Shown in pieces: positions 11,384-46,162 of a stretch of 64,000 nt of DNA. The notes beneath the pieces were generated by a model. It searched no databases. It was given only the letters and a program-made list of their open reading frames with translations, and was not told where the DNA came from. The first letter of the stretch is position 1. Every line of letters begins with the position of its first letter. The translations under genes were made by a program, and so were the position numbers. The stretch covers positions 8,859-72,858 of the forward strand of contig NZ_CAKZHQ010000043.1 in the NCBI RefSeq assembly GCF_936925435.1, written 5' to 3'. This DNA comes from an uncultured Ramlibacter sp. (GTDB lineage: Bacteria > Pseudomonadota > Gammaproteobacteria > Burkholderiales > Burkholderiaceae_C).

Positions 11384-12100
11384 ATGCGCCAGATCGTTCT
11401 CGACACCGAAACCACCGGCCTGTCCGCCGAAGGCGGCGACCGCATCATTGAAATCGGCTGCGTGGAGCTGTTTGCGCGCAAGCTCACCGGCAACAACAAG
11501 CATTTCTACCTGAACCCGGAGCGCGACAGCCACGAAGACGCGCTCAAGGTGCACGGCATCAGCAACGAGTTCCTGCGCGACAAGCCCAAGTTCGCGGCTG
11601 TGGTCGAGGAACTGATGGAGTACCTGCGCGGCGCCGAGATCATCATCCACAACGCCGCCTTCGACGTCAGTTTCCTGAACAAGGAACTGGAACTGGTCGG
11701 CCGGCCCGGCTTCAAGACCGTGGTGGGCAGCGTCACCGACACCCTGGTGATGGCCAAGGAGATGTACCCCGGCAAGCGCAACAGCCTGGACGCGCTGTGC
11801 GACCGGCTGGGCGTGGACAACTCCAGCCGCACCCTGCACGGCGCCTTGCTGGATGCGGAGCTGTTGGCCGACGTCTATATCAACCTCACGCGCGGCCAGG
11901 ACGCGCTGCTGATCGACGTGGCCGACACCAGCGCGGCGGCCGGCATCGCCACCCGCATCGACCTGACAGCCTTCACGCTGCCGGTGCTGCTGGCCAGCGA
12001 GCAGGAAACCACGGCCCACGAAGAGGTGCTCATGCAGTTGGACAAGGCCAGCGGCGGCAAGACGCTGTGGCGGCAGAACCCTGCTCAGCCTGTGGCATAA
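11384..12100 (+). CDS. dnaQ: DNA polymerase III epsilon subunit (3'-5' proofreading exonuclease)
   Basis: 238 aa. Exo motifs DTETTG, HNAAFD, HGALLDAELLADVY. Confidence 0.9.
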   Translation: MRQIVLDTETTGLSAEGGDRIIEIGCVELFARKLTGNNKHFYLNPERDSHEDALKVHGISNEFLRDKPKFAAVVEELMEYLRGAEIIIHNAAFDVSFLNKELELVGRPGFKTVVGSVTDTLVMAKEMYPGKRNSLDALCDRLGVDNSSRTLHGALLDAELLADVYINLTRGQDALLIDVADTSAAAGIATRIDLTAFTLPVLLASEQETTAHEEVLMQLDKASGGKTLWRQNPAQPVA

Positions 12101-12124
12101 TTGCAGGCTTCCTGAACGAATTCA

Positions 12125-12199
12125 GGGCGATTAGCTCAGGGGTAGAGCACTGCATTCACACTGCAGGGGTCGCAAGTTCGAAACTTGCATCGCCCACCA
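12125..12199 (+). tRNA. tRNA-Val (anticodon CAC)
   Basis: Folded by hand. Acceptor GGGCGAT/ATCGCCC, D stem GCTC/GAGC, anticodon stem CTGCA/TGCAG with loop TTCACAC, T stem GCAAG/CTTGC with TTCGAAA loop, encoded CCA. Confidence 0.9.
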
Positions 12200-12204
12200 G
12201 ACAC

Positions 12205-12229
12205 AAAGCCGGCCTCGCGCCGGCTTTTT
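12205..12229 (+). terminator. rho-independent terminator after tRNA-Val
   Basis: AAAGCCGGC-CTCGC-GCCGGCTTTTT: GC stem followed by a T run. Confidence 0.6.
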
Positions 12230-12291
12230 GCTGTCCGGCGTCGGCCGGGTCAGGTGGCCCAGGCCCGTCTGCGCTGGGCGACAATGGCCGT

Positions 12292-13143
12292 ATGGGTTCA
12301 CAGATTCATGTTGTGCCGGGCAGCACTGCGCTCGTGCTCGACTCGCCGCACAGCGGCGTTCACTATCCCGCCGACTTCGCCCACGCCTGCGATCCGCTGC
12401 TGCTGCGCCAGGCCGAGGACACCCACGTCGAGAAGCTCTACGCCTTCGCGCCCGGCCTGGGCGTGGCCTGGATCGAGGCGCTGTTTCCGCGCAGCTATCT
12501 CGATGCCAATCGCAACACCACCGAAATCGATGCCGCGCTGTTCGACCAGACCTGGCCCGACGCCATCGAGACCGACCCCGCGGCCCTGGCCAAGGTGCGC
12601 CTGGGCAAGGGCCTGATCTGGCGCCTGACCGACGATGGCCTTCCCCTGTACGACCGCAAGCTCCGCGTCGCCGAGGTCCAAGCGCGCATCGCCAACTGCT
12701 GGCGGCCCTACCACGCGGCCGTGGCGGCCGCGATTGACGCCGCGCACGCGCGCCATGGCTACAGCATCCACCTGAACTGCCACTCCATGCCGGCCATTGC
12801 CAGCAGCCACGCCACCGGTTTTCCGGGCATGGTTCACGCCGACTTCGTCATCGGCGACCGCGACGGCAGCACGGCGGACCCGCGCCTGTCGGCCCTGGTC
12901 TGCGAGCACCTGCGCGGCCTGGGCTACAGCGTGGACTACAACCATCCCTACAAGGGCGTGGAACTGGTGCGCCGCTACGGCGAGCCGGCGCGCCAGCGCC
13001 ACAGCCTGCAGGTGGAGATCAACCGCAAGCTCTACATGGACGAGCAGACGCTGGAGATGACGGCCGGCTTCGACGCCTTGCGCACGAACCTGCGCTCCCT
13101 GGTGGAACTGCTGCTGCAAATCGATCCGCGCACTTTCGCCTGA
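12292..13143 (+). CDS. N-formylglutamate amidohydrolase-family protein
   Basis: Real part of ORF 11797..13143, starting [22 protein letters not shown]. FGase-like motifs [21 protein letters not shown]. Confidence 0.8.
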
Positions 13144-27575: not shown

Positions 27576-28166
27576 ATGACCACAGTCGTTGTTGTGAGGA
27601 AGGCCGGTCAGGTCGCCATCGCCGCCGACACCCTGGTGACCTTCGGCGACACCCGGCTGGCGCACCGCTTCGAGGCCAACACCAAGATCTTCCAGGTCGA
27701 GACCGACGCCGGGCCCAGCTACATTGGCATGGCCGGCACCGTGGCCCATTTCCCGGTGCTGCGCAAGGCCCTGGGCGCGATGCCGCGCGAGCTGCTCAAG
27801 CTGACCAGCAAGGACGATGTCTTCGACACCTTCACCAAGCTGCATCCCTACCTGAAGGACAACTTCTTCCTGCAGACCAAGGAAGAAGACAGCGACCCCT
27901 ACGAGTCCAGCCAGTTCAGCGTGGTGATCGCCAATGCCAGCGGCATCTACGGCCTGTACAGCTACCGCGAGGTCTTCGAGTTCAAGGAATTCTGGGGCAT
28001 CGGTTCCGGCCGCAGCTTTGCCCTGGGCGCCATGCACGCGGCCTACGGCAAGGCCAAGACCGCCAGGGAAGTGGCGCAGGCCGGCATCGCCGCCGGCTGC
28101 GAGTTCGACCGCAACTCCGCAGGTCCCTGCGACGTGTTCACAATCAAAATGAAAGGCGCCAAATGA
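27576..28166 (+). CDS. proteasome beta/HslV-like Ntn-hydrolase homologue (possibly the BPH type)
   Basis: 196 aa. [19 protein letters not shown] (Thr directly after Met, Asp18), NTKIF (Lys37), GIGSG at 141-145. These align by eye with HslV: TTIVSVRRNGHVVIAGD..KKVRR..AIGSGG. The stop overlaps the lpdA ATG. Confidence 0.65.
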
Positions 28167-29983
28167 GCGTCATTGACATTCAAGTGCCGGACATCGGCGA
28201 TTTCGATGAGGTTGCTGTCATCGAGGTTCTGGTCAAGCCCGGCGACACGGTCAAGGCCGAACAGTCGCTGGTGACGGTGGAGTCCGACAAGGCCTCGATG
28301 GAGATTCCGTCCAGCCATGCCGGCGTGGTCAAGGAACTCAAGATCAAGGTCGGCGACAAGGTCAAGCAAGGTTCCGTGTTGCTGACTCTGGAAGCGGCTG
28401 CTGGCGCCGCTGCACCGGCCGCAGCCCCTGTTTCGGCACCGAATCAGCCTGCAGCCCCCGTGCAGGCTCCCTCATCTGCTCCTGTTTCTGTAGCGCCTAC
28501 GGCCAATTACGGCGGCGGTGTCGACCAGGAATGCGACGTGCTAGTGCTCGGCGGCGGCCCCGGCGGCTACTCGGCCGCCTTCCGCGCCGCCGACCTGGGG
28601 CTCAAGGTCGTCCTGGTCGAGCGCTATGCCACCCTGGGTGGCGTCTGCCTGAACGTGGGCTGCATTCCCTCCAAGGCCCTGCTGCACGTGGCAGCGGTGA
28701 TGGACGAGGTCAGCCACTTCGAGGCCCTGGGCGTGAGCTACGGCAAGCCGGTGGTCGATCTGGCCAAGCTCAAGGCCCACAAGAACAAGGTCCTGTCCAA
28801 GCTCACCGGCGGCCTCACGGCCATGGCCAAGATGCGCAAGGTGACGGTGGTGCGCGGCTACGGCCAGTTCCTGGACCCGCACCATCTCGAGGTCGAAGAG
28901 ACCACGGGCCAGGCCCAGGAGCGCACGGGCAAGAAGCAGACCGTCAAGTTCAAGAGTGCCATCATCGCCGCCGGCTCGCAGGCCGTGCACCTGCCCTTCA
29001 TGCCCAAGGACCCGCGCGTGGTGGACTCCACCGGCGCGCTGGAGCTGGGCAGCAGCCCGAAGCGCATGCTCATCCTGGGCGGCGGCATCATCGGCCTGGA
29101 GATGGGCACGGTCTATTCGACGCTGGGCGCGCGCCTGGACGTGGTCGAGATGCTGGACGGCCTGATGCAGGGCGCCGACCGCGACCTGGTCAAGGTCTGG
29201 CAGAAGATGAACACGCCGCGCTTTGACAACATCATGCTCAAGACCAAGACCGTGGGCGCCGAGGCGACCCAGGATGGCATTCGCGTGACGTTCGAAGGCG
29301 AGCAGGCACCCAAGGAGCCGCAGGTCTATGACCTGGTGCTGCAGGCCGTGGGCCGCACGCCCAACGGCAAGAAGATCGGTGCTGACAAAGCCGGTGTGGC
29401 GGTGAGCGAGCGTGGCTTCATCGCGGTGGACATCCAGATGCGCACCAACGTACCCCACATCTTTGCCATCGGCGACGTCGTCGGCCAGCCCATGCTGGCC
29501 CATAAGGCGGTGCACGAGGGCCATGTGGCGGCGGAAGTCGCGGCCGGCAGCCTCAACGGCGACCAGGCGTTGCAACGCGCCGCCTTCAATGCCCGCGTCA
29601 TCCCCAGCGTGGCCTATACAGATCCCGAGGTGGCCTGGGTGGGTCTGACCGAGGACCAGGCCAAGGCCCAGGGCATCGCCATCAAGAAGGGCCACTTCCC
29701 CTGGTCGGCTTCCGGCCGTGCCATCGCCAATACCCGGGACGAGGGCTTCACCAAGCTGCTGTTCGACGCGCAAACCCATCGCATCCTGGGCGGCGGCATC
29801 GTCGGCACCCATGCGGGCGACATGATCGGCGAGGTGGCCCTGGCCATCGAGATGGGTGCCGACGAGATCGACATCGGCAAGACCATCCATCCGCATCCCA
29901 CGCTGGGCGAGAGCATCGGCATGGCGGCGGAAATCGCCCACGGCACCTGCACCGACGTGCCGCCGCCGCGTAAGCCAAGCTGA
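28163..29983 (+). CDS. lpdA: dihydrolipoyl dehydrogenase (E3) with N-terminal lipoyl domain
   Basis: 606 aa. N-terminal lipoyl domain ([10 protein letters not shown]), Ala/Pro linker, then GGGPGGY, redox disulfide [19 protein letters not shown]-type C-terminus (IHPHPTLGE). Confidence 0.9.
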
Positions 29984-30476: not shown

Positions 30477-30950
30477 TCAGCGGCAGCGCAGGGGCAGCAG
30501 GCCGGCGGGCACGTCGGTCTTGTTGACGCCCTGCGCCTTCATCTTGTCCGGCGCCGTGGCCGGGCCGCACAACCACGTGATGGGAACGACAGGCGTGTCC
30601 TCCACCACCGCCGGCCGCAGGCTCAAGGTCTTGCCCAGCAGGGCCCGGTTGGCCTTGTTGCCGAAGCGGATGTGGATGGCGCCGTCCTGCACGGTCACGC
30701 TGCTGACCACCGCGTTGACGATCTTGTCCGCCTGCGGCAGGCCGGCCGCGGCGTTGTCGGCCGGCAGCGGCTGCCCCAGCAGCCAGGCCGCGGCCACGGG
30801 CGGCTTGGCAATGTCGGCCAGGGGCAGGGCCTCGGCCACCTGCTCGCGCACGATGCGGTCAAGGTAGCTGGGCAGGGCGATCAGCGAGAGGATGGCGATC
30901 ACGGCGATCACCACCATGAGCTCGATCAGGGTGAATCCGTTGCGACGCAT
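30477..30950 (-). CDS. type IV pilin (prepilin with N-terminal methylation site)
   Basis: MRRNG/FTLIELMVVIAVIAILSLIALPSY (G-F cleavage site, Glu5). C-terminal Cys...Cys loop (WLCGPATAP...PLRCR). Confidence 0.8.
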   Translation of the reverse strand: MRRNGFTLIELMVVIAVIAILSLIALPSYLDRIVREQVAEALPLADIAKPPVAAAWLLGQPLPADNAAAGLPQADKIVNAVVSSVTVQDGAIHIRFGNKANRALLGKTLSLRPAVVEDTPVVPITWLCGPATAPDKMKAQGVNKTDVPAGLLPLRCR

Positions 30951-30977: not shown

Positions 30978-31763
30978 TCAGGGCCGCACGGCCGGCGTCT
31001 CCACCGCCATGCCCATGGCGCGCGCCGCCAGGTGCAACTCCAGCGCCACCATGTCCGGGCTGTTGGCGGCAAAGGGCTCGGCTCGCACGCCGGTCAGGCA
31101 GCCGCGCAGGCGGCGTTGCAGCGAGCCCAGGCCCTGCCATTCCAGCCGGTAGACCGGGTAGCCTGTCGCATGGCCTTGCGGGATGGTGCTGCCCGCGAGC
31201 TTGCCGCCGGCCAGCTGGTCGTGGCACTGGGCACAGGACAGGTCGAGCTGGCCCAGGCGCTGTGCGAACAGCTGGGCGCCGCGCTCGCGCAGGGGCGCCA
31301 GCCGCGGGTCGGCATCGGGCGCCATCGGAAGTCCGCGCGACTGCATGGCCACATAGGTTTCCAGGCCCAGCAACTGCGCGTGTTCCGCGCCCCAGGCCGG
31401 CAGCTGCTGGTGGCGCTGGCGGCACAGGTTGATGCGCATGCCCAGGTTGACCGCGCTGGCCGAGGTCGCATCCCACGCGGGATAGCGCGCCGCCACGCCG
31501 GCCATGCTGGTGGCCGCCTCCCCGTGGCAGCTGGCGCAGGAGCGCGACTGCGGGCCCTCGGCCTTGCGCCACAGGGCCTGGCCGTCCTGCACCCAGAGCA
31601 TGGCGGGATTGGCGTTGTCGTCGCGCTGCATGGCCTGGACGTCCGGTCCCATGAAGTCGAAGCTCGAGCGGCGCGCGTCGAGGACGGGCGAGGGGGAGGG
31701 CGGGGCGGCCGCGCAACCCAGCAGCACGGCCAGCAGCGCAGTGGCGAGCGCGCGCCGGCTCAT
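30978..31763 (-). CDS. soxA: SoxA-like dihaem cytochrome c (lipobox signal)
   Basis: Real part of ORF 30978..32150: MSRRALATALLAVLLGCAAA. Two CxxCH motifs (CASCH, CAQCH). RRLRGCLTGVRAEP, the conserved Cys-ligand region. ATG overlaps the soxZ stop. Confidence 0.8.
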   Translation of the reverse strand: MSRRALATALLAVLLGCAAAPPSPSPVLDARRSSFDFMGPDVQAMQRDDNANPAMLWVQDGQALWRKAEGPQSRSCASCHGEAATSMAGVAARYPAWDATSASAVNLGMRINLCRQRHQQLPAWGAEHAQLLGLETYVAMQSRGLPMAPDADPRLAPLRERGAQLFAQRLGQLDLSCAQCHDQLAGGKLAGSTIPQGHATGYPVYRLEWQGLGSLQRRLRGCLTGVRAEPFAANSPDMVALELHLAARAMGMAVETPAVRP

Positions 31764-32080
31764 GTGACGGACAAATCCACGCGCTCGGTCTGGGCGAAGC
31801 CGTTGTCGCCCTGCCACTCGAACTCCAGCGTGCCGGAGTCGGTCGCCAGCAGGTGGAACTGCAGGTAGGGATTGGCCGACACGGCGGAGAACAGTTCGGC
31901 CGTGAACACCGTCTCGCCGTTGTAGCGGCAGGCAAAGCGCTGGATGATGTCGCGCGGCTGCACCTTGCCCTCGGCGTTGGGCCGGAAACCCGTCTCCATG
32001 GGATGGGCGATGGTGGCGCGGATCTCCACCACCTCGCCCCGGCGCGCGGTCTTGGGGACGCTCAGCAGGGTGCGGGCCAT
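31760..32080 (-). CDS. soxZ: SoxZ-like carrier-complex subunit
   Basis: 106 aa. GEVVEIRATIAHPMETGFR...NGETVF...SANPYLQF, the SoxZ pattern. Confidence 0.8.
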   Translation of the reverse strand: MARTLLSVPKTARRGEVVEIRATIAHPMETGFRPNAEGKVQPRDIIQRFACRYNGETVFTAELFSAVSANPYLQFHLLATDSGTLEFEWQGDNGFAQTERVDLSVT

Positions 32081-32544
32081 CAGGGATCGCCCTCGATGCA
32101 GGCCGCCAGCACCACCACCACATCCATGCTGTCCGACCAGAAGCTGCCATCGCTCATGCGGGCGACGGCCACCAGCTTCTGGCTGGTCGCCAGGCGGACG
32201 CGGGTGGCCACCGCCGCCTTGCCGGCGCGCGGGCCCAGCGTGAACTTCGCCACCTCGCGCTGCGGGTTGCGCTCGTTGTAGATGGCGATCGCTGCCACAT
32301 GGTCGGCCGCTGTCATCGGGCTGTCGACGCTCACGCTGACCGGCACCACGTTGCCGTTGTCCACCAGTTTGGCGACCTCGAGTCTGACGCGGCCGCGCTG
32401 GATGAGGGCGCCGCCGGAATACGCTGCAAGCGCGGCGGCGAGCTCGGGCGCATCCTGGCTGCGCGCCGGCGTTGCCAGCACCATGGCGGTGCCCCAGGCC
32501 AGCAGCTCGCGGCGGCGGGTCAAGAGCGGTCTGGAGGCTGCCAT
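32080..32544 (-). CDS. SoxY-related carrier protein with non-canonical C-terminal arm (..VVLAACIEGDP)
   Basis: Real part of ORF 32080..32814: MAASRPLLTRRRELLAWG (twin-arginine signal), DNGNVVPVSVSV SoxY core. It ends LAACIEGDP rather than GGCGG. Confidence 0.75.
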   Translation of the reverse strand: MAASRPLLTRRRELLAWGTAMVLATPARSQDAPELAAALAAYSGGALIQRGRVRLEVAKLVDNGNVVPVSVSVDSPMTAADHVAAIAIYNERNPQREVAKFTLGPRAGKAAVATRVRLATSQKLVAVARMSDGSFWSDSMDVVVVLAACIEGDP

Positions 32545-32546
32545 GG

Positions 32547-32978
32547 CTAGCGCAGCGTGACCAGGTAGGCCACGACGTCTTCCACCTGCTGGGCGCTGAA
32601 CACAGGCTTGCCCTGCCAGGCCGTGCCGACGCGCGTCAGGCCGTCCGTGCGGTGGTAGGCCGGCATGATGGATTGCGGATGGAGCAGGCGCGCATCCACC
32701 AGGCGCAGGCGCAGCTGGCCCGCGCTCCAGCGTGCGCCCGTGCCGGCCAGGTCCGGCGCCAGATTGCCCTGGAAGCGTTCTTCGGGGATGGGCGCTGTAT
32801 GGCACAGCAGGCACAGGCCGAGCTGGCGGTTGGCGACGATGGCGCGGCCGCGGGCCGCGTCGCCCACCGCAGCGGCCAGCGGCTGGGCTATGGCATCGCC
32901 GGTCACGCTGTACGTGGCCAGGACCTGGGCCTTCGCGCCCAGCGATGCAAGCAGGAGGGCCAGCGCCACCAACTGCAT
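32547..32978 (-). CDS. SoxX-like monohaem cytochrome c
   Basis: 143 aa. Sec signal, CLLCH haem motif, IMPAYH (candidate Met ligand), VVAYLVTL C-terminus. Confidence 0.7.
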   Translation of the reverse strand: MQLVALALLLASLGAKAQVLATYSVTGDAIAQPLAAAVGDAARGRAIVANRQLGLCLLCHTAPIPEERFQGNLAPDLAGTGARWSAGQLRLRLVDARLLHPQSIMPAYHRTDGLTRVGTAWQGKPVFSAQQVEDVVAYLVTLR

Positions 32979-32988
32979 GGCGCGGTGC

Positions 32989-35175
32989 TCAGGCCCGCTT
33001 GAGGCTGTGGTTCTTCAGCGGCAGGTCGCGGATGCGCTTGCCGGTGGCCGCATAGACCGCGTTGAGCACGGCTGGCGCCGCCACCGCGATGGTCGGCTCG
33101 CCGACACCGCCCCAGAAGCCGCCGCTGGCGACGATCACCGTCTCCACCGCCGGCATGTGCTGCATCTGGACCACAGGGTAGGTGCTGAAGTTGTCCTGCT
33201 CCATGCGGCCGTCCTTGAGCGTGCATTCGCCGAACAGCGCCGCCGACAGGCCGTAGGCGAACGAGCCCTCGACCTGGGCTTCGATCTGCTGCGGGTTGAC
33301 CGCATGGCCGCAGTCGGTGGCCGCGACGATGCGGTGCACCTTGAGCTCGCCCTCGGCGTTGACCGAAACTTCGGCACAGGCCGCCACATAGCTGCCAAAG
33401 CCCATGGTCTGGGCCAGGCCGCGAAACACCTTCTGGCCGCCCACGTCGGGTGGCGGCGTGCCCCATTTGACGCGCTCGGCCACGGCATTGAGCACGGCCA
33501 GGTGCTTGGGATGGCTGGCCATCAGCTTGCGGCGCAGGGCCAGCGGGTCCTGTTTGGTCTCGACCGCGATCTCGTCGATGAAGGACTCCAGGTAGATCGC
33601 GTTCTGGTTCAGGTTGACGCCGCGCCAGAAGCCCGGCGGCACCGGCGGGTTGCGCATTGCATGGTCGATCAGCAGGTTGGGAAAGCTGTAGCCAATGGAG
33701 GCTTCGGGTCCCGGCGCGTTCAGGCCCTGGAAGACCACCGGATCGCGCCCGCCCTGCAAGGCCTGGGTCGAGATGCCGGCCAGGATGGACTGGCCCGAGA
33801 TGCGCATGTGCAGGGCCGTGATGTTGCCCTGGGCATCGAGCCCGGCCTGCATGCGGCACTGCGTGACCGGGTGGAAGCGGCCGTGCAGCATGTCTTCTTC
33901 GCGGCTCCACAGCAGCTTGACCGGCACGCCGGGCATCTGCTTGGCGATGTCCACCGCCTGGCGCACCCAGTCGTGCACCGCGCCGCGCCGGCCGAAGCCG
34001 CCGCCCAGGTGCAGCTTGTAGACCTCGCACTGGGCCGCCGGCAGGCCCGAGGCCTCCGAGGTGGCGGCCAGGGCCGCTTCCCCGTTTTGGGTGGGTGTCC
34101 AGACCTCGCAGCGCTGGGGCGTCCAGCGCGCCGTGGCGTTCATGGGCTCCATGGTCGCGTGGTTCTGGTGCGGGTAGGAGTAGAAAGCCTCGATGCGGCG
34201 CGGGGCTGAGGCCAGGGCGGCTCTGGCGTCACCGTTCTGGTTGCCGACCACGGCGTCAGTGGCGTCAAAGCCGGCCCGCAGGGTCTTGGCCACGTCGACG
34301 CTGGACAGGCCGGCGTTCGGGCCGTTGTCCCATTCGATGGGCAGGGCGTCCAGCGCCGTCTTGGCGCGCCACCAAGTGTCGGCGATGACGGCCACGGCCG
34401 AATCGCCGACCCGCACCACCTTCTTGATGCCGGGGCGCTTCTCGATCGCGGCGGCATTGAAGCTTTTGAGCTTGCCGCCAAAGACCGGGCAGTCCTTGAT
34501 GGCGGCATTGAGCAGGCCGGGCAGCTTGAGGTCGGCGCCATAGACCTGCTTGCCGGTGACCTTCTCGACCGTGTCCAGCCGCGCCATGCGCTTGCCCACC
34601 AGCTTCCAGTCTTTCGGGTCCTTGAGCGCCACATCGGTGGGCACGGCCAGCTTGCCGGCGGCATCGGCCACCTGGCCGTAGCGCAGCGTGCGGCCGCTGG
34701 GCACATGGGTGATGACGCTGTTGGCGGCGCGGCAGTCCGCCGCCGGCACGCTCCATTGCGTGGCCGCGGCCTGGACCAGCATGGTGCGGGCGGCCGCGCC
34801 GCCCTTGCGCACGTAGTCGTGCGACTCGCGGATGCCGCGGCTGCCGCCGGTGGAGAAGTTGCCCCAGGCCCGGTTGCGCGCCAGGTTCTGGCCGGGTGTC
34901 GGGTATTCGGTCGTCACCTTGGCCCAGTTGCACTCGAGTTCTTCGGCCACCAACTGGGCCAGACCGGTCAGGCTGCCCTGGCCCATCTCGGAGCGGGCGA
35001 TGCGGATCACCACGGTGTCGTCGGGCCGCACCACGACCCAGGCATTGATTTCAGGGGCGGCCGCGCCTTGCGCCGCCGCCTCACCGGCCAAGGGGATGTG
35101 GAAGGCCACGACCAGCCCGCTGGCAGCGGACGCCTGTAAGAAGCCGCGGCGGCGCAGCGATGCCTGGGCGCTCAT
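32989..35175 (-). CDS. molybdopterin-binding subunit of an IorB / aldehyde-oxidase-type hydroxylase (Tat-exported)
   Basis: Real part of ORF 32989..35388: [20 protein letters not shown] (Tat signal), [29 protein letters not shown] motifs. ATG overlaps the small-subunit stop. Confidence 0.85.
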
Positions 35176-35675
35176 GTCGTGCTCCCGTCGGCGTGCTGGA
35201 TGGCCAGGGCGGCGCTTTTGGTGTTGCCGCCACGGGCCACGACCTTGATGGCGGCGCGGATGCGGTTGTAGGTGCCGCAGCGGCAGATGTTGGTCATCGC
35301 CTCGTTGATGTCGGCGTCGCTGGGATTGGGCTTGTCGCGCAGCAGGGCGACGGCCGTCATGATCATGCCGCACTGGCAGTAGCCGCACTGCGGCACGTCC
35401 AGCTGGGCCCAGGCCTTTTGCACCGGGTGCGAGCCGTCGGGCGAGAGCCCCTCAATGGTGACGATCTTCTCGGCGGCGCCGACCGTGGACACCGGCCGCA
35501 CGCAGCTGCGGGTGGGGACGCCGTTGATGTGCACAGTGCAGGCGCCGCAGGCGGCGATGCCGCAGCCGTACTTGGTGCCCGTCAGGCCCAGCTGCTCGCG
35601 CAGCACCCACAGCAGGGGCGTGTCCTGCTCCGCCTCGAAATCGCGCACCGCGCCGTTGACGTTGAGTTTCGCCAT
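35172..35675 (-). CDS. (2Fe-2S)-binding small subunit of the Mo-hydroxylase (IorA-like)
   Basis: 167 aa. [12 protein letters not shown] and QCGYCQCG...CRCGTY, two [2Fe-2S] cysteine clusters. Confidence 0.9.
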
Positions 35676-35778
35676 GCATTGCTCCCGTGGGTGAGAAGAC
35701 TGGACGCGCGGATATTACGCCGCGCGTTGCGCTCTGACCATGGGAACAACGAGAAGGGCGGCGCGCTGCGCCGGCCGC

Positions 35779-36503: not shown

Positions 36504-37604
36504 GTGAAAAACTTGCTGTTTGCGGCCGCTGTCTGCCTGTCGGCATGGGCCGCGCCTGCCGCCGCCCAGGACTGGAAGGTCCAGGAAGTGGCCGGTGCAC
36601 TGGAGCATCCCTGGGCCCTGGCTTTCCTGTCCGAGGGCAGGTTCCTGGTGACCGAGCGGCCCGGCCGCATGCGCGTGATCGAAGCCGACGGCAAGCTGGG
36701 CCCGCCGCTGGCCGGCCTGCCCCAGGTGGCGGCGGGCGGGCAGGGTGGCCTGCTGGACCTGGTGGCCGATTCGGCCGTTGCCCGCAACAGCACGGTCTAT
36801 TTCTGCTTCTCCGAACCGGGGGCCGGCGGCAACGGCACGGCCCTGGCCCGGGCCCGGCTGGCGGCCGACCGCAGCCGGCTGGAGGATGTCAAAGTGCTGT
36901 TCCGCCAGCAGCCCAAGGTGGCGAGCAGCCTGCATTTCGGTTGCCGCATCGTTGAGGCGGCCGACGGCAGCCTGTTCCTTACCCTGGGCGAGCGCTACAG
37001 CCGGATGCAGGACGCGCAAAAGCTGGACAACCACCTGGGCAAGGTCGTGCGGCTGGACAAGGAAGGGGCGCCGGCGCGCGGCAATCCCTTCGAGGGCCGC
37101 TCCGGTGCACTGCCGGAAATCTGGAGCCTGGGCCACCGCAACCCGCAGGGCGCAGCGCTGGCGCCCGACGGCAGGTTCTGGATCCATGAGCACGGTCCGC
37201 AGGGCGGCGACGAGATCAACCTGTCGCAGGCCGGCCGCAACTACGGCTGGCCCCTGGCCACCTTCGGCGAGAACTATGGCGGCGGCAAGATCGGCGCGGG
37301 CCTGAGCGCGCACCCCGGCACGGAGCCACCGCTGCACTACTGGGTGCCGTCGATCGCGCCGTCGGGCATGGCCTTTCTCACCAGCGAGCGTTACGGCCCG
37401 GCCATGAAGGGCAACCTGTTCGTGGGTTCCCTCAAGTTTGGCTACCTGGCCCGCATCGAGCTGGCTGGCGCCAAGGTGCTGCGCGAACACAAACTGCTGG
37501 AAGGGCAGGGCCGCATCCGCGACGTGCGCCAGGGGCCCGACGGCCTGCTCTATGTGCTGACCGACAGCGACAAGGGCCGGCTGCTGCGCCTGCTGCCGCC
37601 CTGA
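36504..37604 (+). CDS. PQQ-dependent soluble sugar/aldose dehydrogenase (YliI-like beta-propeller)
   Basis: 366 aa. GTG start, signal peptide, GLEHPWALAFL, GGLLDL, GHRNPQG, EHGPQGGDE, NYGWP. Confidence 0.85.
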   Translation: MKNLLFAAAVCLSAWAAPAAAQDWKVQEVAGALEHPWALAFLSEGRFLVTERPGRMRVIEADGKLGPPLAGLPQVAAGGQGGLLDLVADSAVARNSTVYFCFSEPGAGGNGTALARARLAADRSRLEDVKVLFRQQPKVASSLHFGCRIVEAADGSLFLTLGERYSRMQDAQKLDNHLGKVVRLDKEGAPARGNPFEGRSGALPEIWSLGHRNPQGAALAPDGRFWIHEHGPQGGDEINLSQAGRNYGWPLATFGENYGGGKIGAGLSAHPGTEPPLHYWVPSIAPSGMAFLTSERYGPAMKGNLFVGSLKFGYLARIELAGAKVLREHKLLEGQGRIRDVRQGPDGLLYVLTDSDKGRLLRLLPP

Positions 37605-37613
37605 AGGCCGGGC

Positions 37614-38261
37614 TCAGGGTTTGATCAGGCCCTTGCGCACCGCGTAGAGGGTCAGGCTGGCGATGTCGTTCAGGCGCAGCCGCTCCATGATGCGGGCCCG
37701 GTGCACGTCCACCGTCTTGGGCGACAGGCCCAGCTCGAACGCGATCTCCTTGGAAGCGCGGCCCTGGGCGATCAGCTTGAGGATTTCCACTTGGCGGTGG
37801 GTCAGCTCGTCGTCCGCCGTGGGCTCGGAGGGCTGCAGCAGGCGCTGGGCGATCGCCGGGCTGAAATAGCTTCCGGTGGCCATCACGCTGCGCACCGCCT
37901 GCTCCAGCTCGAAGGGCGGCGCATCCTTCATCAGGTAGCCGCAGGCACCGTTGGCCACTGCGCGCTTGACGAAGTCGACGGTGTCGTACATGGACAACAC
38001 CAGCAGGTGCACCTTGGGGTGGCTGGCGTGGATCTGGGAGATCGCGGTGATGCCATCCATGCCAGGCATGGAGATGTCGGTCATCACCACGTCGGGCTTG
38101 AGGCTGTCGACCAGGGTGATCAGTTCCTTGCCGTCGCGCGCTTCGGCGATCACCTCCACGCCGGCCACGAGGGACAGCAAGGCCTTGATTCCTGAGCGCA
38201 CGAGATCGTGGTCATCGGCAAGCACCACACGGATGGGCTGTGGTGCGCTGGTGTTTTTCAT
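37614..38261 (-). CDS. NarL/FixJ-type response regulator
   Basis: 215 aa. VLADDHDLVR, VMTDISMPGMDG, LTHRQVEILKLIAQGRASKEIAFELGLSPKTVDVHRARIMERL. Confidence 0.9.
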   Translation of the reverse strand: MKNTSAPQPIRVVLADDHDLVRSGIKALLSLVAGVEVIAEARDGKELITLVDSLKPDVVMTDISMPGMDGITAISQIHASHPKVHLLVLSMYDTVDFVKRAVANGACGYLMKDAPPFELEQAVRSVMATGSYFSPAIAQRLLQPSEPTADDELTHRQVEILKLIAQGRASKEIAFELGLSPKTVDVHRARIMERLRLNDIASLTLYAVRKGLIKP

Positions 38262-38285
38262 GGTCTTTCCTTGGACGCCTGAAGC

Positions 38286-39386
38286 CTATAGCACTGCGCG
38301 GATCGCGACTCCGACACCGGGCCGGGTGCGGATGTGAAGACGCCCGCCCGCCAGCTCGGTGCGCTCGATCATGCCGTGCAGTCCCACATTGTGTTCGCTG
38401 GTGGGGCCGGACAGCACATCTTGCTTGTCGAAACCGACGCCGTCGTCCACCACCAGCATGCCGATGGCGCCGCCGGGCAGGAAGCGCAGGCGCACCACGA
38501 CATGTGTAGCCTGGGCGTGCCGCACGATGTTGTTGAGAGCCTCCTGCACCAGCCGGACGGCCACCGAGGCGGTCTCGCCCAGGACGGCGGGCTCCTTGCC
38601 GCGCGAGGTGACGGTGTAGGCCAAGCCGGCCGGCTCGCCGATGCGCTGGACGGCTGATTGGACGGCCGCCACCAGGCCCAGCAGGTCCAACTGGGCAGGC
38701 CGCAACGAGAACGACAGGGTCTTGAGCTGCTTGACGGCGCCCTGCGCCATCTCCATCGCGGTCTCGGTGTGCAGCTTGGCGGCGTCCTCGCTGGGCGCGC
38801 GTTTGGCCGCGTGCAGGTGGATCACCATGCCGGTGAGGGTCTGGCCCAGCTGGTCGTGCAGCTCGCGCGAAATCAGGGTGCGTTCGCGCTCTTGCGCCAC
38901 CACCAGCTTGGCCGACAGCCGCTTCAGGCGCCGGTAGGCGGCATCGAGCTCCTGGGCCAGCCGTTCCTGTTCGAGCACGCGCCGGCGCTCGGCGATCACC
39001 CGCTCGATGATTTGCGGCAGTGTGCCCAGCTTGTCCTTGGTCAGGTAGTCCTTGGCGCCGCAGCGCAGCACGTGGACCGCCGCTTCCTCGCCGATGGCCC
39101 GGGTTACCACCACCAGCGGCGTGCTGCAGCGCCGCGCCAGCAGGATCTGCAGGGCTGCATACGGCGAGAAGCGCGGCATGTTGAAGTCGCACAGGATGAC
39201 GTCGAACTCCTGGCTCTGGGCCAGGGCTTCGGTGAAGCCGCCGGCGTCGTCCACGCGGTGCAGCAGGTACTTGCGCTGCGGATCGGCCCGCTCCAGCGCC
39301 AGGGCCATCAGTTCGACGTCGTCCGGGTTGTCCTCCACGCACAGCAGCCTGACGTCGGTGGTTTCGGGGGATGCGTCGTTCGGCAT
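38286..39386 (-). CDS. cytoplasmic histidine kinase with N-terminal receiver domain (REC-HisKA_3-HATPase)
   Basis: 366 aa, no hydrophobic segment. LLCVEDNPDDVEL / ILCDFNMP (receiver Asp), SRELHDQLGQTLTG (H-box), EALNNIVRHA, DDGVGF, GLHGMIER. Confidence 0.8.
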   Translation of the reverse strand: MPNDASPETTDVRLLCVEDNPDDVELMALALERADPQRKYLLHRVDDAGGFTEALAQSQEFDVILCDFNMPRFSPYAALQILLARRCSTPLVVVTRAIGEEAAVHVLRCGAKDYLTKDKLGTLPQIIERVIAERRRVLEQERLAQELDAAYRRLKRLSAKLVVAQERERTLISRELHDQLGQTLTGMVIHLHAAKRAPSEDAAKLHTETAMEMAQGAVKQLKTLSFSLRPAQLDLLGLVAAVQSAVQRIGEPAGLAYTVTSRGKEPAVLGETASVAVRLVQEALNNIVRHAQATHVVVRLRFLPGGAIGMLVVDDGVGFDKQDVLSGPTSEHNVGLHGMIERTELAGGRLHIRTRPGVGVAIRAVL

Positions 39387-39584
39387 TGTTGAGCAGGCGG
39401 TATTGCGGCGAGTTTACCGCGCGGGTTGCGCTTGCAAACCCTGTTGGCGCCGGCCTGCGCGTCCGCCCCAGATACGCCAGCTTAGGAATTTGCCCTAAAC
39501 CGTCCGCGCCAATCGCCTAAGGGCCCGGTTGCACCCAATGGTTTCATCGTTGCAGACGAAGTTGACCATGCAGGAGAGACCCCA

Positions 39585-40391
39585 ATGACCCCCGTTCCCG
39601 GCGCTGCCATCACTGCCCTGCCGGGCGCTCTGCGCCCCCGTGGCTTTGCCCATGGCTGGCTGGACCAGACCGGCTGGCCCGCGCTGGCCATGGCGGCGGC
39701 CTTTGCCACCCTGTTTGCCCTGTCCCTGTACATCCTGGGTGGCATGGCCCCGGCTGAATTGCTGGCGCCCGGCGCCCTGGTGTCCAGCCTGCTGGGCCTG
39801 CTGGCCCTGAAGTCCGGCGGCGTGGTGCTGCGCCGTTCGCTGGCAGCTTCGCGTGGTCTGCTCGACTCCGCAACCGGCCTGTACAGCCAGTCCGGCTTTG
39901 CCCGGGAAAGCGCTGTCCTGCTGGAACGCGCCCGCCGCAGCGGCCGCACGCTGAGCGTGGTGGTCTTCGAATTTGACGACTTGCTGGAAGTCCATAGCAT
40001 CTACGGCGCCGCGGTCAGCCGCACCCTGCTGGGCCAGGTGGCCCGCCAGCTGGAAGCTGTCGCCGGTGGCTATGGTGTGGCGGCCCGCACCGGCAGGACC
40101 CAGTTCAGCCTGGCGCTGCCCGGCCTGAACCGCGACCAGGCGCGCGCCGCGGTGGAAAGCGTGTTCGGCCAGGCCTGCTGCATCGAGTTCGATGCCGACG
40201 ACGACGAGATCATGCTGGTGCCCGAGGTGCTGGTCGACGCCATGCCGGACGAGGCCGGGTCCGTCACAGCCTTCCAGCAGCAACTGGTCGCCGACCTGGC
40301 CCGGCTGCGCGCGGAAGAGCAACGCCGCGTCCTGTACCTGCAGCGCGAGCGCGAGAGCCATTCCCGTCCGATGAGCCTGGCTGCCCATTGA
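39585..40391 (+). CDS. membrane protein with degenerate GGDEF-like domain
   Basis: 268 aa. Two hydrophobic segments, DSATGLYSQSGF (compare DxLTGLxNRR). The GGDEF position reads ARTGRTQFSLAL, and the metal/GTP residues are also replaced (FEFDDLLEVHSIYGAAVSRTLL). Confidence 0.55.
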   Translation: MTPVPGAAITALPGALRPRGFAHGWLDQTGWPALAMAAAFATLFALSLYILGGMAPAELLAPGALVSSLLGLLALKSGGVVLRRSLAASRGLLDSATGLYSQSGFARESAVLLERARRSGRTLSVVVFEFDDLLEVHSIYGAAVSRTLLGQVARQLEAVAGGYGVAARTGRTQFSLALPGLNRDQARAAVESVFGQACCIEFDADDDEIMLVPEVLVDAMPDEAGSVTAFQQQLVADLARLRAEEQRRVLYLQRERESHSRPMSLAAH

Positions 40392-43160: not shown

Positions 43161-43294
43161 GATCGATGGCACAATTGAGGTCGCAACCCGGCCCCTTCCA
43201 GCCACAGTCGCATCCGCCAACCGGTCCAGCCGTGTCGCGGAAGGTTTCTACAACCAGCCAAGGCCTCCTGCAGGGGGGCGGAAAGTAGCGCAGC

Positions 43295-46162
43295 ATGAGT
43301 GACAGCACCGTCTACACGGCCTACCAGGGCAATTCGTATCTCTTCGGCGGCAACGCGCCCTATGTCGAGGAGATGTACGAGAACTACCTCGCCAACCCCG
43401 GCAGCGTGCCCGACAACTGGCGTGAATACTTCGACGCCTTGCAGAACGTTCCCGCCGCCGACGGCAGCAACGCCAAGGACATCGCCCACCTGCCGGTGAT
43501 CAATGCCTTTGCCGAGCGCGCCAAGCAGGGCGGCACCCGCGTGGTCCAGGCCACCGGCGCCGATTCCGAAATGGGCCGCAAGCGCACCGCGGTGCAGCAG
43601 CTGATCGCCGCCTACCGCAACGTCGGCGCCCGCTGGGCCGACCTGGACCCGCTCAAGCGCGCCGAGCGCGAGAAGATCCCCGAGCTGGACCCGTCCTTCT
43701 ACGGCTTCTCCGACGCCGACCAGGAAACCATCTTCAACACCAGCAACACCTTCTTCGGCAAGGAGACGATGTCGCTGCGCGAGCTGCTCAACGCGCTGCG
43801 CGAAACCTACTGCGGCACCATCGGCGCCGAGTACATGTACATCAGCGACCAGGGCAAGAAGCGCTGGTGGCAGCAAAAGCTCGAATCGATCCGCAGCAAG
43901 CCCAACTTCCTGGCCGATCAGAAAAAGCAGATCCTCGACCGCGTCACCGCGGCCGAAGGCCTGGAGCGCTTCCTGCACACCAAGTACGTGGGCCAGAAGC
44001 GCTTCTCGCTGGAAGGCGGCGAAAGCTTCATCGCCTCGATGGACGAACTGATCCAGCGTTCCGGCGCCAAGGGCGTGCAGGAGATCGTGATCGGCATGGC
44101 CCACCGCGGTCGCCTGAACGTGCTGGTCAACACCATGGGCAAGATGCCCGCCGACCTGTTCGCCGAGTTCGACCACACGGCCAAGGAAGACCTGCCCTCC
44201 GGTGACGTCAAGTACCACCAGGGCTTCAGCTCGGACGTGACCACCCCCGGCGGCCCGGTCCACCTGAGCCTGGCCTTCAACCCCTCGCACCTGGAGATCG
44301 TCAACCCGGTGGTCGAGGGCTCGGTGCGGGCCCGCATGGACCGCCGCGCCGACCCGCAGGGCAAGCAGGTGCTGCCCGTGCAGGTGCACGGCGACGCTGC
44401 CTTCGCCGGCCAGGGCGTGGTGATGGAAACCCTGGCGCTGGCCGAAACCCGCGGCTACTTCACCGGCGGCACGGTCCACATCGTCATCAACAACCAGATC
44501 GGCTTCACCACCTCCGATCCGCGCGACGCGCGCTCCACCCTGTACTGCACCGACATCGTCAAGATGATCGAGGCGCCGGTGCTGCACGTCAACGGCGACG
44601 ATCCCGAGGCAGTGGTGCTGGCCACCCAGATCGCGCTGGACTACCGCATGGAGTTCAGCAAGGACGTGGTGCTGGACATCGTGTGTTTCCGCAAGCTGGG
44701 CCACAACGAGCAGGACACGCCGGCGCTGACCCAGCCGCTGATGTACAAGAAGATCGGCACCCATCCGGGCACGCGCAAGCTCTACGCCGACAAGCTGTCG
44801 GCCCAGGGCCTGGGTGACACGCTGGGCGAGGACATGGTCAAGGCCTACCGCGCCGCCATGGACGCCGGCAAGCACACGGTCGACCCGGTGCTGACCAACT
44901 TCAAGAGCAAGTTCGCGGTCGACTGGAGCCCCTACCTGGGCAAGAAGTGGACCGACGCCGCCGACACCGCCATTCCGACGGCCGAGTGGAAGCGACTGGC
45001 CGAGAAGATCACCACCGTACCGGCCGGCTTCACGCCGCACCCGCTGGTCAACAAGGTGCTGCTCGACCGCGCCGCCATGGGCCGCGGCGATGTCAACGTC
45101 GACTGGGGCATGGGCGAGCACATGGCTTTCGCCTCCCTGGTGGCCAGCGGCTACCCGGTGCGCCTGTCGGGCGAGGACTGCGGCCGCGGCACCTTCACCC
45201 ACCGCCACTCGGTGCTGCACGACCAGAACCGCGAGAAGTTCGACGAAGGCACCTACGTGCCGCTGTGCCACGTGGCCGACAACCAGGCGCCTTATGTCGT
45301 CATCGACTCCATCCTGTCGGAAGAGGCGGTGCTGGGCTTCGAGTACGGCTACGCCTCGAACGATCCCAACACCCTGGTGATCTGGGAAGCCCAGTTCGGC
45401 GACTTCGCCAACGGCGCCCAGGTGGTGATCGACCAGTTCATCGCCTCGGGCGAGGTCAAGTGGGGCCGCGTCAACGGCATCACCCTGATGCTGCCGCACG
45501 GCTACGAAGGCCAGGGCCCGGAGCACAGCTCGGCCCGCCTGGAGCGCTTCATGCAGCTGTCGGCCGACACCAACATGCAGGTGGTGCAGCCCACGACGGC
45601 CAGCCAGATCTTCCACGTGCTGCGCCGCCAGATGGTGCGCCCGCTGCGCAAGCCGCTGATCATCATGACGCCCAAGTCGCTGCTGCGCAACAAGGACGCC
45701 ACCTCGCCGCTGTCGGAGTTCACCAGGGGCGGCTTCCAGACCGTCATCCCGGAGAACAAGGACCTCAAGGCCGACAAGGTCAAGCGCATCGTCGTGTGCT
45801 CCGGCAAGGTCTATTTCGATCTGGCCAAGAAGCGCGAGGAGAAGGGCTTTGACGACGCAGTCATCCTGCGCGTCGAGCAGCTCTATCCCTTCCCGCACAA
45901 GGTGTTCGCCGCCGAGCTCAAGAAGTACCCCAACGCCACCGACATCGTCTGGTGCCAGGACGAGCCGCAGAACCAGGGCGCCTGGTTCTTCGTGCAGCAC
46001 TACATCCACGAGAACATGCTCGACGGCCAGAAGCTGGGTTACTCCGGCCGTGCCGCCTCGGCCTCGCCGGCGGTGGGCTACTCGCACCTGCACCAGGAGC
46101 AGCAAAAGGCTTTGGTCGACGGCGCCTTCGGCAAGCTCAAGGGCTTCGTGCTCACGAAATAA
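43295..46162 (+). CDS. sucA: 2-oxoglutarate dehydrogenase E1 component
   Basis: 955 aa. Typical SucA sequence throughout (MAHRGRLNVL, GDAAFAGQGVV, HGYEGQGPEHSSARLERF). Confidence 0.95.
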   Translation: MSDSTVYTAYQGNSYLFGGNAPYVEEMYENYLANPGSVPDNWREYFDALQNVPAADGSNAKDIAHLPVINAFAERAKQGGTRVVQATGADSEMGRKRTAVQQLIAAYRNVGARWADLDPLKRAEREKIPELDPSFYGFSDADQETIFNTSNTFFGKETMSLRELLNALRETYCGTIGAEYMYISDQGKKRWWQQKLESIRSKPNFLADQKKQILDRVTAAEGLERFLHTKYVGQKRFSLEGGESFIASMDELIQRSGAKGVQEIVIGMAHRGRLNVLVNTMGKMPADLFAEFDHTAKEDLPSGDVKYHQGFSSDVTTPGGPVHLSLAFNPSHLEIVNPVVEGSVRARMDRRADPQGKQVLPVQVHGDAAFAGQGVVMETLALAETRGYFTGGTVHIVINNQIGFTTSDPRDARSTLYCTDIVKMIEAPVLHVNGDDPEAVVLATQIALDYRMEFSKDVVLDIVCFRKLGHNEQDTPALTQPLMYKKIGTHPGTRKLYADKLSAQGLGDTLGEDMVKAYRAAMDAGKHTVDPVLTNFKSKFAVDWSPYLGKKWTDAADTAIPTAEWKRLAEKITTVPAGFTPHPLVNKVLLDRAAMGRGDVNVDWGMGEHMAFASLVASGYPVRLSGEDCGRGTFTHRHSVLHDQNREKFDEGTYVPLCHVADNQAPYVVIDSILSEEAVLGFEYGYASNDPNTLVIWEAQFGDFANGAQVVIDQFIASGEVKWGRVNGITLMLPHGYEGQGPEHSSARLERFMQLSADTNMQVVQPTTASQIFHVLRRQMVRPLRKPLIIMTPKSLLRNKDATSPLSEFTRGGFQTVIPENKDLKADKVKRIVVCSGKVYFDLAKKREEKGFDDAVILRVEQLYPFPHKVFAAELKKYPNATDIVWCQDEPQNQGAWFFVQHYIHENMLDGQKLGYSGRAASASPAVGYSHLHQEQQKALVDGAFGKLKGFVLTK

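Follow-up and report, generated by a model that had tools for sequence, protein, structure and literature searches.

The locus described here lies in a 64,000-nucleotide (nt) stretch of DNA from an uncultured Ramlibacter sp. (contig NZ_CAKZHQ010000043.1, positions 8,859 to 72,858; the whole stretch is called the window in what follows) and consists of six genes on the minus strand, iorA, iorB, soxX, soxY', soxZ and soxA, running in this order from 35675 to 30978 (primes mark the Sox components of this locus and its relatives). Its closest described counterparts are of two kinds. With the canonical Sox system of Paracoccus pantotrophus and Rhodovulum sulfidophilum it shares the SoxX, SoxZ and SoxA families, their haems and Cys ligands, the carrier Cys and the division of export between the twin-arginine translocation (Tat) and Sec pathways; it differs in a carrier arm that reads AAC[IL][ED]G rather than GGCGG, in having no SoxB or SoxCD beside it in the window or among about 100 related neighbourhoods, and in having a molybdenum enzyme as its constant partner. 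With the membrane-bound aldehyde dehydrogenase of Gluconobacter oxydans (PDB 8gy3) and the isoquinoline 1-oxidoreductase (IorAB) of Brevundimonas diminuta it shares a small subunit with two [2Fe-2S] clusters and a Tat-exported molybdenum subunit, but the window locus lacks a gene for a cytochrome c subunit, the third component of 8gy3, and has a SoxXY'ZA set instead. A preliminary description of the window had named the SoxYZ-like carriers associated with quinoprotein dehydrogenases as a precedent. That family, TIGR04557, likewise places a SoxYZ-type carrier beside a non-Sox periplasmic dehydrogenase, but its members are YZ fusions that go with a pyrroloquinoline quinone (PQQ) enzyme, unlike the separate soxY' and soxZ' genes of the window, and the window proteins reach only 53.2 and 45.4 bits against its cut-off of 140. 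The window carrier is instead a member of TIGR04487, already curated under a name that is silent on function and on any partnership with IorAB. A 2026 survey put the number of soxA/X/Y/Z paralogues 'insulated' from sox clusters at roughly a thousand and did not look into their context (PMC13500833), and full-text literature searches returned no paper on the pairing of IorAB with SoxXY'ZA, in line with the preliminary description, whose author knew of no system of this composition. The carrier family was already known as a curated model and a RefSeq name; the present finding concerns its partnership with a Mo enzyme of the xanthine-oxidase family, together with an uncatalogued sister family with an AACLD arm. 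Of the explanations considered, we prefer one in which the six gene products form a single periplasmic system, a Sox-type carrier set without SoxB working on or with IorAB.

Carriers were sought with an alignment of AACIE carriers in one genome per GTDB species, which gave 470 encoding stretches; the best 80 loci were analysed, and the cassette genes were located in them by tblastn with the window proteins. The order iorA-iorB-soxX-soxY'-soxZ-soxA, on a single strand, was present in 73 of the 80. Wherever enough flank was available the cassette was complete (72/72 upstream, 73/73 downstream), the remaining seven loci being too short. The hosts are Comamonadaceae (Ramlibacter, Polaromonas, Caenimonas, Curvibacter, Hylemonella, Rhodoferax), Oxalobacteraceae (Massilia, Noviherbaspirillum, Undibacterium, Duganella, Herminiimonas) and one Casimicrobiaceae metagenome-assembled genome (MAG); the nearest loci, from Ramlibacter and Burkholderiales MAGs, have the same flanks as the window, and identical copies occur in several metagenome assemblies. 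When flanking open reading frames (ORFs) were clustered across the 80 loci, the six genes alone were universal and the flanks changed with lineage. Median intergenic gaps along the cassette were -4, 26, 3, 0 and -4 nt, tight enough to imply co-translation; orthologue start codons were assigned automatically, so that these gap sizes, and above all that between iorB and soxX, are approximate. The adjacency of iorAB and soxXY'ZA, which the preliminary description had noticed in this one genome, thus recurs in about 100 loci and three architectures and is far beyond chance. One apparently divergent IorB (L085, 48% identity) was rejected as the product of a frameshifted long-read assembly. In two Polaromonas-like loci (L012 11738-12571, and L047) soxA is followed by a gene for a two-part protein: its C-terminal part has an NCBIfam match to the amicyanin (cupredoxin) family, and its N-terminal half has a CxxCH haem motif that looks P460-like by eye.

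The same partnership was found in two further arrangements. Outside the cassette clade, IorB identity is 44-51% in the closest representatives, and a homologue of the nearest of them (P0355, 57% identical to the window IorB) is encoded divergently beside soxX-soxY-soxZ-soxA, with a carrier ending in IAGCLDQS. A metagenome scan with the carrier of this locus gave 22 soil loci, and in 11/11 loci with upstream sequence (10 from the scan and L090) iorA(-iorB) is divergent from soxXY'ZA. In this soil clade the gene next after soxA is unrelated and lies on the other strand, the arms read IAACLDGS or IAGCLDQ[ST], and the carriers are 35-44% identical to that of the window (L090 5320-5790; L094-L115). 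They score best on TIGR04487, at 89-101 bits against its cut-off of 172, and also fall under the canonical SoxY cut-off, so that they form an uncatalogued sister group covered by no curated model. The third arrangement, iorA-iorB-cytochrome c-fccB-soxX-soxY'-soxZ-soxA, occurs on plasmids of Methylobacterium sp. NMS14P and Neorhizobium galegae. There IorB is 66-69% identical to that of the window, the arms are the alphaproteobacterial LAACLEG and LPACAEN, and RefSeq names the carrier 'SoxY-related AACIE arm protein' on both plasmids. Plasmid, soil and betaproteobacterial loci together extend the partnership over two proteobacterial classes and three gene orders. On the Neorhizobium galegae VafX2 plasmid (L122 3770-5936) the iorB of the Sox-linked operon is matched by tblastn in two segments that lie in different frames; it has no entry in the gene table, and may be a pseudogene or a sequencing error.

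The related loci also carry a recurrent link to sulfide dehydrogenase. A small cytochrome c and a Tat-exported flavoprotein adjoin the cassette in 17 of the 80 genome loci, directly 3' of soxA or, in two of them, directly 5' of iorA, and with the cytochrome c/fccB pair that both plasmids have between iorB and soxX this makes 19 fccAB-linked loci in all. The flavoprotein is FccB, matching the flavocytochrome c sulfide dehydrogenase 5n1t at E 2e-97, and its occasional attachment to the module resembles that of SoxEF, an accessory of canonical Sox. Three independent placements of fccAB argue that the module is functionally tied to reduced sulfur, whether sulfide or sulfane sulfur. Neither fccA nor fccB was found among the window ORFs scanned.

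In the window itself the gene spacing, overlaps and coordinates given in the preliminary description were reproduced base for base from the minus strand. The genes iorA and iorB overlap as ATGA, soxX begins 10 nt past the iorB stop codon (32991-32989) and soxY' 2 nt past that of soxX (32549-32547), base 32080 is common to the soxY' stop and the soxZ ATG, and soxZ and soxA overlap as ATGA at 31763-31760. A consensus scan detected no sigma-70-like promoter or terminator within the six-gene unit, the internal break that the same description had thought worth checking for, and the tight spacing is found in orthologues as well. Its further statements, that a pilin gene and not soxB follows soxA and that the window has no soxCD, also stand for the ORFs scanned: Pfam gave no SoxB-type or SoxC-type domain in about 45 window ORFs beyond the unit, a scan of the window only. 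The export signals that it listed are all present, with the qualification that the LLGC lipobox of SoxA is not kept in orthologues, most of which have plain Sec leaders; we accordingly rejected it as a feature of the system.

The sequence features of the six products are collected in the table below. IorA has eight Cys in two 2Fe-2S-type motifs (Cys38/43/46/58 and Cys97/100/131/133), a mean pairwise identity of 81% among orthologues and no signal peptide, and is presumably exported together with its Tat partner IorB. The latter is the best conserved of the six proteins (80% mean pairwise identity); its twin-arginine motif is present in 75/76 orthologues and its active-site motifs are near-invariant across 75-81 aligned sequences. 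Among solved structures the closest is that of the large subunit of the Gluconobacter membrane aldehyde dehydrogenase (8gy3_C), which matches over the full length at E 5e-69 and with which the motifs HQNHATMEP and GVGEPT align; by analogy with bovine xanthine oxidase, these presumably hold the catalytic Gln and Glu. The locus has no gene for a flavin adenine dinucleotide (FAD) subunit (FAD_binding_5/CO_deh_flav), and IorAB reaches no NCBIfam equivalog cut-off.

The Sox' parts, with mean pairwise identities of 62-68%, look catalytically competent from their sequences. SoxX' matches the SoxX of Rhodovulum (E 6.5e-23) and Paracoccus (E 2.5e-21) with haem and Met regions kept, and for SoxA' the alignment with 1h31, the SoxA of Rhodovulum, spans its length (E 6e-49), both haem motifs and both Cys ligands being matched there and conserved in 77 sequences. 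SoxZ' is leaderless, as expected for co-export with a Tat partner. In SoxY', Cys149 aligns with the carrier Cys of Paracoccus SoxY, the twin-arginine motif occurs in 80/80 orthologues, and the arm is [LI]AAC[ILV]E in nearly all 80 with few variants (AACIEG[DE] in Betaproteobacteria); its Cys is kept in all of them except one garbled sequence. The window SoxY' scores 88 bits on the canonical GGCGG model TIGR04488, under the cut-off of 125, and at the sequence level the AACIE arm is the feature that separates this system from canonical SoxY.

Table. Features of the six-gene unit and of its surroundings, in window coordinates
Feature	Position	Strand	Description
iorA	35172-35675	-	small subunit, FAD-less xanthine-oxidase-family Mo hydroxylase; Pfam Fer2 and Fer2_2
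iorB	32989-35175	-	molybdopterin-binding large subunit, 728 amino acids (aa); Pfam MoCoBD_1 and MoCoBD_2
RRRGFL (in SLRRRGFLQ)	35137-35154	-	Tat signal of IorB
HQNHATMEP	34144-34170	-	active-site motif of IorB
GGGFGRR	33985-34005	-	active-site motif of IorB
GVGEPT	33091-33108	-	active-site motif of IorB
soxX-like	32547-32978	-	monohaem cytochrome c, ATG at 32978; TIGR04485 76.8 bits (cut-off 61); Sec leader
CLLCH	32799-32813	-	haem motif of SoxX'
IMPAY	32655-32669	-	Met-ligand region of SoxX'
soxY'	32080-32544	-	carrier, ATG at 32544; TIGR04487 'SoxY-related AACIE arm protein' 197.1 bits (cut-off 172)
RRRELL (in LTRRRELL)	32500-32517	-	Tat signal of SoxY'
AACIEGDP	32083-32106	-	carrier arm at the SoxY' C-terminus; Cys149 at 32098-32100
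soxZ-like	31760-32080	-	carrier partner; TIGR04490 88 bits (cut-off 76); Pfam SoxZ; no signal peptide
soxA-like	30978-31763	-	dihaem cytochrome c; TIGR04484 219.8 bits (cut-off 110)
CASCH	31524-31538	-	haem motif of SoxA'
CAQCH	31221-31235	-	haem motif of SoxA'
INLCRQ	31416-31433	-	Cys ligand region of SoxA'
LRGCLT	31092-31109	-	Cys ligand region of SoxA'
TAATAT	35712-35717	-	candidate -10-like hexamer, 37 nt upstream of the iorA ATG; by inspection
type IV pilin gene	30477-30950	-	3' of soxA
GSDH, two-component and GGDEF block	36504-39386 and 39486-40391		upstream of the cassette
sucA RNA motif	43208-43290	+	Rfam RF01070, 68 bits
2-oxoglutarate dehydrogenase E1 gene	43295-46162		directly 3' of the sucA RNA motif
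tRNA gene	12125-12196	+	Rfam, 67 bits
long ORF	11797-13143		contains the tRNA gene
196-aa ORF	27576-28166	+	weak proteasome/Ntn-hydrolase Pfam match
E3 gene	28163-29983		606 aa, with its own N-terminal lipoyl domain

The dependence between the two halves of the cassette runs in one direction. Non-GGCGG Sox sets lie beside iorAB in every informative locus examined, yet close IorAB orthologues (58-80% identity) are often without an adjacent Sox set. Eight such Sox-free contexts were found on metagenome and genome contigs, including Polynucleobacter rarus and a Rokubacteria MAG; five of them are sisters 75-80% identical to the Sox-linked soil IorB, and none of the eight has an adjacent cytochrome c gene. 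On plasmids, 301 records hold IorB homologues and only three an AACIE-type carrier. Sinorhizobium pSym replicons have the order cytochrome c-iorA-iorB (66-68% identity) with a small cytochrome c, and plasmid pOB3b1 of Methylosinus trichosporium OB3b (L125 1251-8178) has arylsulfatase-multihaem cytochrome c (650 aa)-iorA-iorB (66% identity), adjoined by genes for XdhC and a MocA-like nucleotidyltransferase. In a neighbour-joining tree, a simple distance tree, the Sox-linked IorBs fall into two non-sister groups. No IorB position marks both of these groups off from the unlinked proteins. Between the Sox-linked soil clade and the unlinked IorBs that are its sisters, just 3 of about 730 positions differ consistently. 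In IorA, too, the two Sox-linked clades share no Sox-specific residue, and its C-terminal tails vary without any pattern. It therefore seems from the sequences that the Sox set needs IorAB, that the reverse is not so, and that the enzyme itself is unchanged by the partnership. A further IorB homologue (L093 5044-8190, 55% identity), which has no adjacent iorA, directly follows GcvH-like and DsrE-like genes and an operon of formate-dehydrogenase-N type, and is a possible second link between the IorB family and sulfur-trafficking proteins.

In the mechanism that we favour, at a probability of roughly 0.3, SoxXA' would charge the carrier Cys with sulfane sulfur and IorAB would unload it oxidatively, in place of SoxB and SoxCD. 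IorB carrying IorA and SoxY' carrying SoxZ' would be exported by Tat, and SoxX' and SoxA' by Sec. SoxXA' would then oxidatively join reduced sulfur to Cys149 on the AACIE arm, the loaded species being most likely sulfide or, where FccAB is co-encoded, sulfane sulfur made by it. The loaded arm would enter the IorAB active site, where the Mo centre could oxidise the terminal sulfane sulfur by two-electron hydroxylation steps; the oxidised sulfur would leave, plausibly as sulfite at the sulfinate stage as with persulfide dioxygenase, and the carrier would be freed without SoxB or SoxCD. Electrons might leave by way of IorA and its two [2Fe-2S] clusters and be taken up by c-type haems, whether those of SoxXA', of FccA or of the general cytochrome c pool. 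Observed are the gene content, the export signals, the retained catalytic motifs, the strict co-location and the fccAB link; each chemical step is inferred, as are the identity of the sulfur substrate, any contact of SoxY' with IorAB and the path of the electrons. As no other gene is common to the flanks of the 80 loci, and the gene after soxA in the soil clade is unrelated, IorAB is the sole candidate for unloading in these neighbourhoods. The proposed reaction would resemble that of SoxCD, where the outer sulfur of a persulfide on the carrier is likewise oxidised by a Mo enzyme, and that of persulfide dioxygenase, in which release at the sulfinate level frees the thiol without a hydrolase; it would differ from both in fold and cofactor chemistry, using an enzyme of the xanthine-oxidase family with Mo=S, and not one of the sulfite-oxidase family or a non-haem iron enzyme.

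Several points weigh against oxidative unloading by IorAB. Enzymes of the xanthine-oxidase family are known to hydroxylate carbon centres, and we know of no member that oxidises a sulfur atom or a substrate tethered to a protein. IorAB orthologues occur without adjacent Sox genes, both in MAGs (58-80% identity) and in Sinorhizobium and Methylosinus (66-68%), and the lack of Sox-specific residues in IorB argues that the specificity of the enzyme is the same with and without Sox. The hosts are mostly heterotrophs and some have relatives reported to carry a canonical soxCDYZAXB cluster (PMC8941145), so that a second sulfur-oxidising route is not obviously needed. We found no experiment or expression data on the module.

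It may be instead that IorAB is an ordinary periplasmic aldehyde or heterocycle oxidoreductase and that the Sox' set, together with FccAB where present, is its accessory, with a persulfide formed by SoxXA' on the SoxY' arm passing to the Mo centre of the Tat-exported enzyme so as to supply or repair its essential Mo=S ligand. Operons of the xanthine-oxidase family often carry ligand-delivery accessories, namely XdhC, PaoD, CoxDEF and, for Se-dependent hydroxylases, YqeB/YqeC. The Sox' genes would resemble these as chalcogen-ligand accessories encoded beside the structural genes, although XdhC/PaoD, CoxDEF and YqeB/YqeC are cytoplasmic in action and have no sequence relationship to Sox proteins. 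Since the transfer would itself regenerate the carrier, neither SoxB nor SoxCD would be needed; the one-way dependence, with Sox' never found without IorAB, and an IorB without Sox-specific residues would be accounted for, and fccAB would serve as the source of sulfane sulfur. XdhC/MocA genes lie beside two unlinked IorAB operons and are absent from all cassette loci and from the window, a pattern that is weak evidence as the genes may simply lie elsewhere in the genomes. On the other hand, known molybdenum cofactor (Moco) sulfuration is cytoplasmic and precedes export, and no periplasmic precedent is known to us; four to six genes, including an oxidative dihaem enzyme, would be a large cost for maintenance, and transfer from a persulfide to Mo in the oxidising periplasm is speculative chemistry. 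On balance we regard a sulfuration role as possible but rather unlikely. If true, it would be the first extracytoplasmic pathway of Moco maturation or repair, and would give Sox proteins a role that is not dissimilatory.

The preliminary description had suggested that SoxXA stands in for a missing cytochrome c subunit, and more generally the haems of SoxXA' might be the redox partner of IorA, either as an electron exit or as a low-potential donor to IorAB acting as a reductase, with SoxY'Z' in a supporting part. It was right that the window locus has no dedicated (multihaem) cytochrome c subunit gene, and SoxX' and SoxA' would provide three haems in all; orthologous operons do pair with varied c-type cytochromes, small in Sinorhizobium and multihaem in Methylosinus, and the closest solved relative, 8gy3, is a three-subunit enzyme that includes a cytochrome c subunit. 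Related loci vary, however: in some Sox-linked loci a small cytochrome c of the Sinorhizobium type (L122, L052) or FccA is present, so that there is no gap to fill, and beside iorAB in the eight unlinked relatives no cytochrome gene is found. His/Cys-ligated SoxA haems have a very low potential and would be poor acceptors, and an electron relay leaves the essentially invariant arm Cys of SoxY'Z' and the Cys-ligated SoxA' haem unexplained. The retained carrier, the extra cytochromes and the cytochrome-less relatives weaken the suggestion, and we think it improbable that SoxXA' is there chiefly for this purpose. Still less probable, in our judgement, is that the two halves are independent enzymes that are merely co-regulated or co-inherited, the Sox' set being a spare or specialised thiosulfate part that uses a SoxB encoded elsewhere and IorAB acting on an unrelated organic substrate. 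SoxX, SoxZ and SoxA do pass the curated cut-offs of the canonical families, relatives carry soxCDYZAXB elsewhere (PMC8941145), and many soxA/X/Y/Z paralogues are reported outside sox clusters (PMC13500833). Independence is nonetheless difficult to reconcile with a co-location that is kept in two proteobacterial classes, in two IorB clades that are not sisters and through three gene orders, with lineage-specific flanks that differ while the six genes stay together, and with a carrier arm systematically unlike GGCGG.

Either oxidative unloading by IorAB or sulfuration of its Mo centre would be new chemistry, in the one case a xanthine-oxidase-family enzyme acting on protein-tethered sulfur and in the other a Sox carrier servicing a Mo=S ligand, and both offer a testable function for the curated AACIE-arm SoxY family and its uncatalogued AACLD-arm sister. 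Since SoxX, SoxZ and SoxA pass their cut-offs and bear RefSeq names of thiosulfate oxidation, heterotrophs that have only this module could be miscounted as Sox oxidisers, a risk that concerns gene-centred surveys of the sulfur cycle and heterotrophs of soil and freshwater. Cultured carriers (Polaromonas, Massilia, Noviherbaspirillum, Methylobacterium, Neorhizobium) open the module to direct experiment.

Upstream of iorA, a TAATAT hexamer was noted by inspection that might be the -10 element of this gene; similar elements, GCGTAATAT, GCGTAACAT and GCTACTAT, were seen upstream of iorA in related loci, by inspection only, and the consensus promoter scan did not call TAATAT at its window position. 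In an Rfam scan at gathering thresholds the neighbourhood of the cassette was free of RNA elements, the Moco riboswitch included; the only matches were a sucA motif and a tRNA elsewhere in the window. An NlpC/P60 gene lies 5' of iorA, and the pilin gene 3' of soxA is followed by an EVE-domain gene. By Pfam, the approximately 45 other window ORFs are housekeeping genes, for example those of the pyruvate and 2-oxoglutarate dehydrogenase complexes, folD, rlmN, ispG and hisS. The order response regulator-kinase-cytochrome c-iorAB-sorbosone dehydrogenase in Sinorhizobium had prompted the idea of a conserved IorAB regulon comprising a GSDH gene and a two-component system, which was dropped when tblastn showed no real homology to the Sinorhizobium genes. 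The corresponding block upstream of the window cassette encodes a PQQ-type GSDH protein, a NarL-type response regulator, a hybrid receiver-HisKA_3 kinase and a GGDEF protein; it is syntenic in Ramlibacter/Caenimonas-like loci, but shows no homology to the two-component genes that adjoin iorAB in Sinorhizobium.

Three other features of the window were recorded in passing. A sucA RNA motif lies directly 5' of the 2-oxoglutarate dehydrogenase E1 gene. A tRNA gene is found inside a long ORF, so that the N-formylglutamate amidohydrolase gene listed there probably starts downstream of the tRNA. After the pyruvate dehydrogenase E2 gene comes a 196-aa ORF and, next to it, an E3 gene, and Comamonadaceae loci have the three genes conserved together (the ORF is cluster c16, present in 23 related loci).

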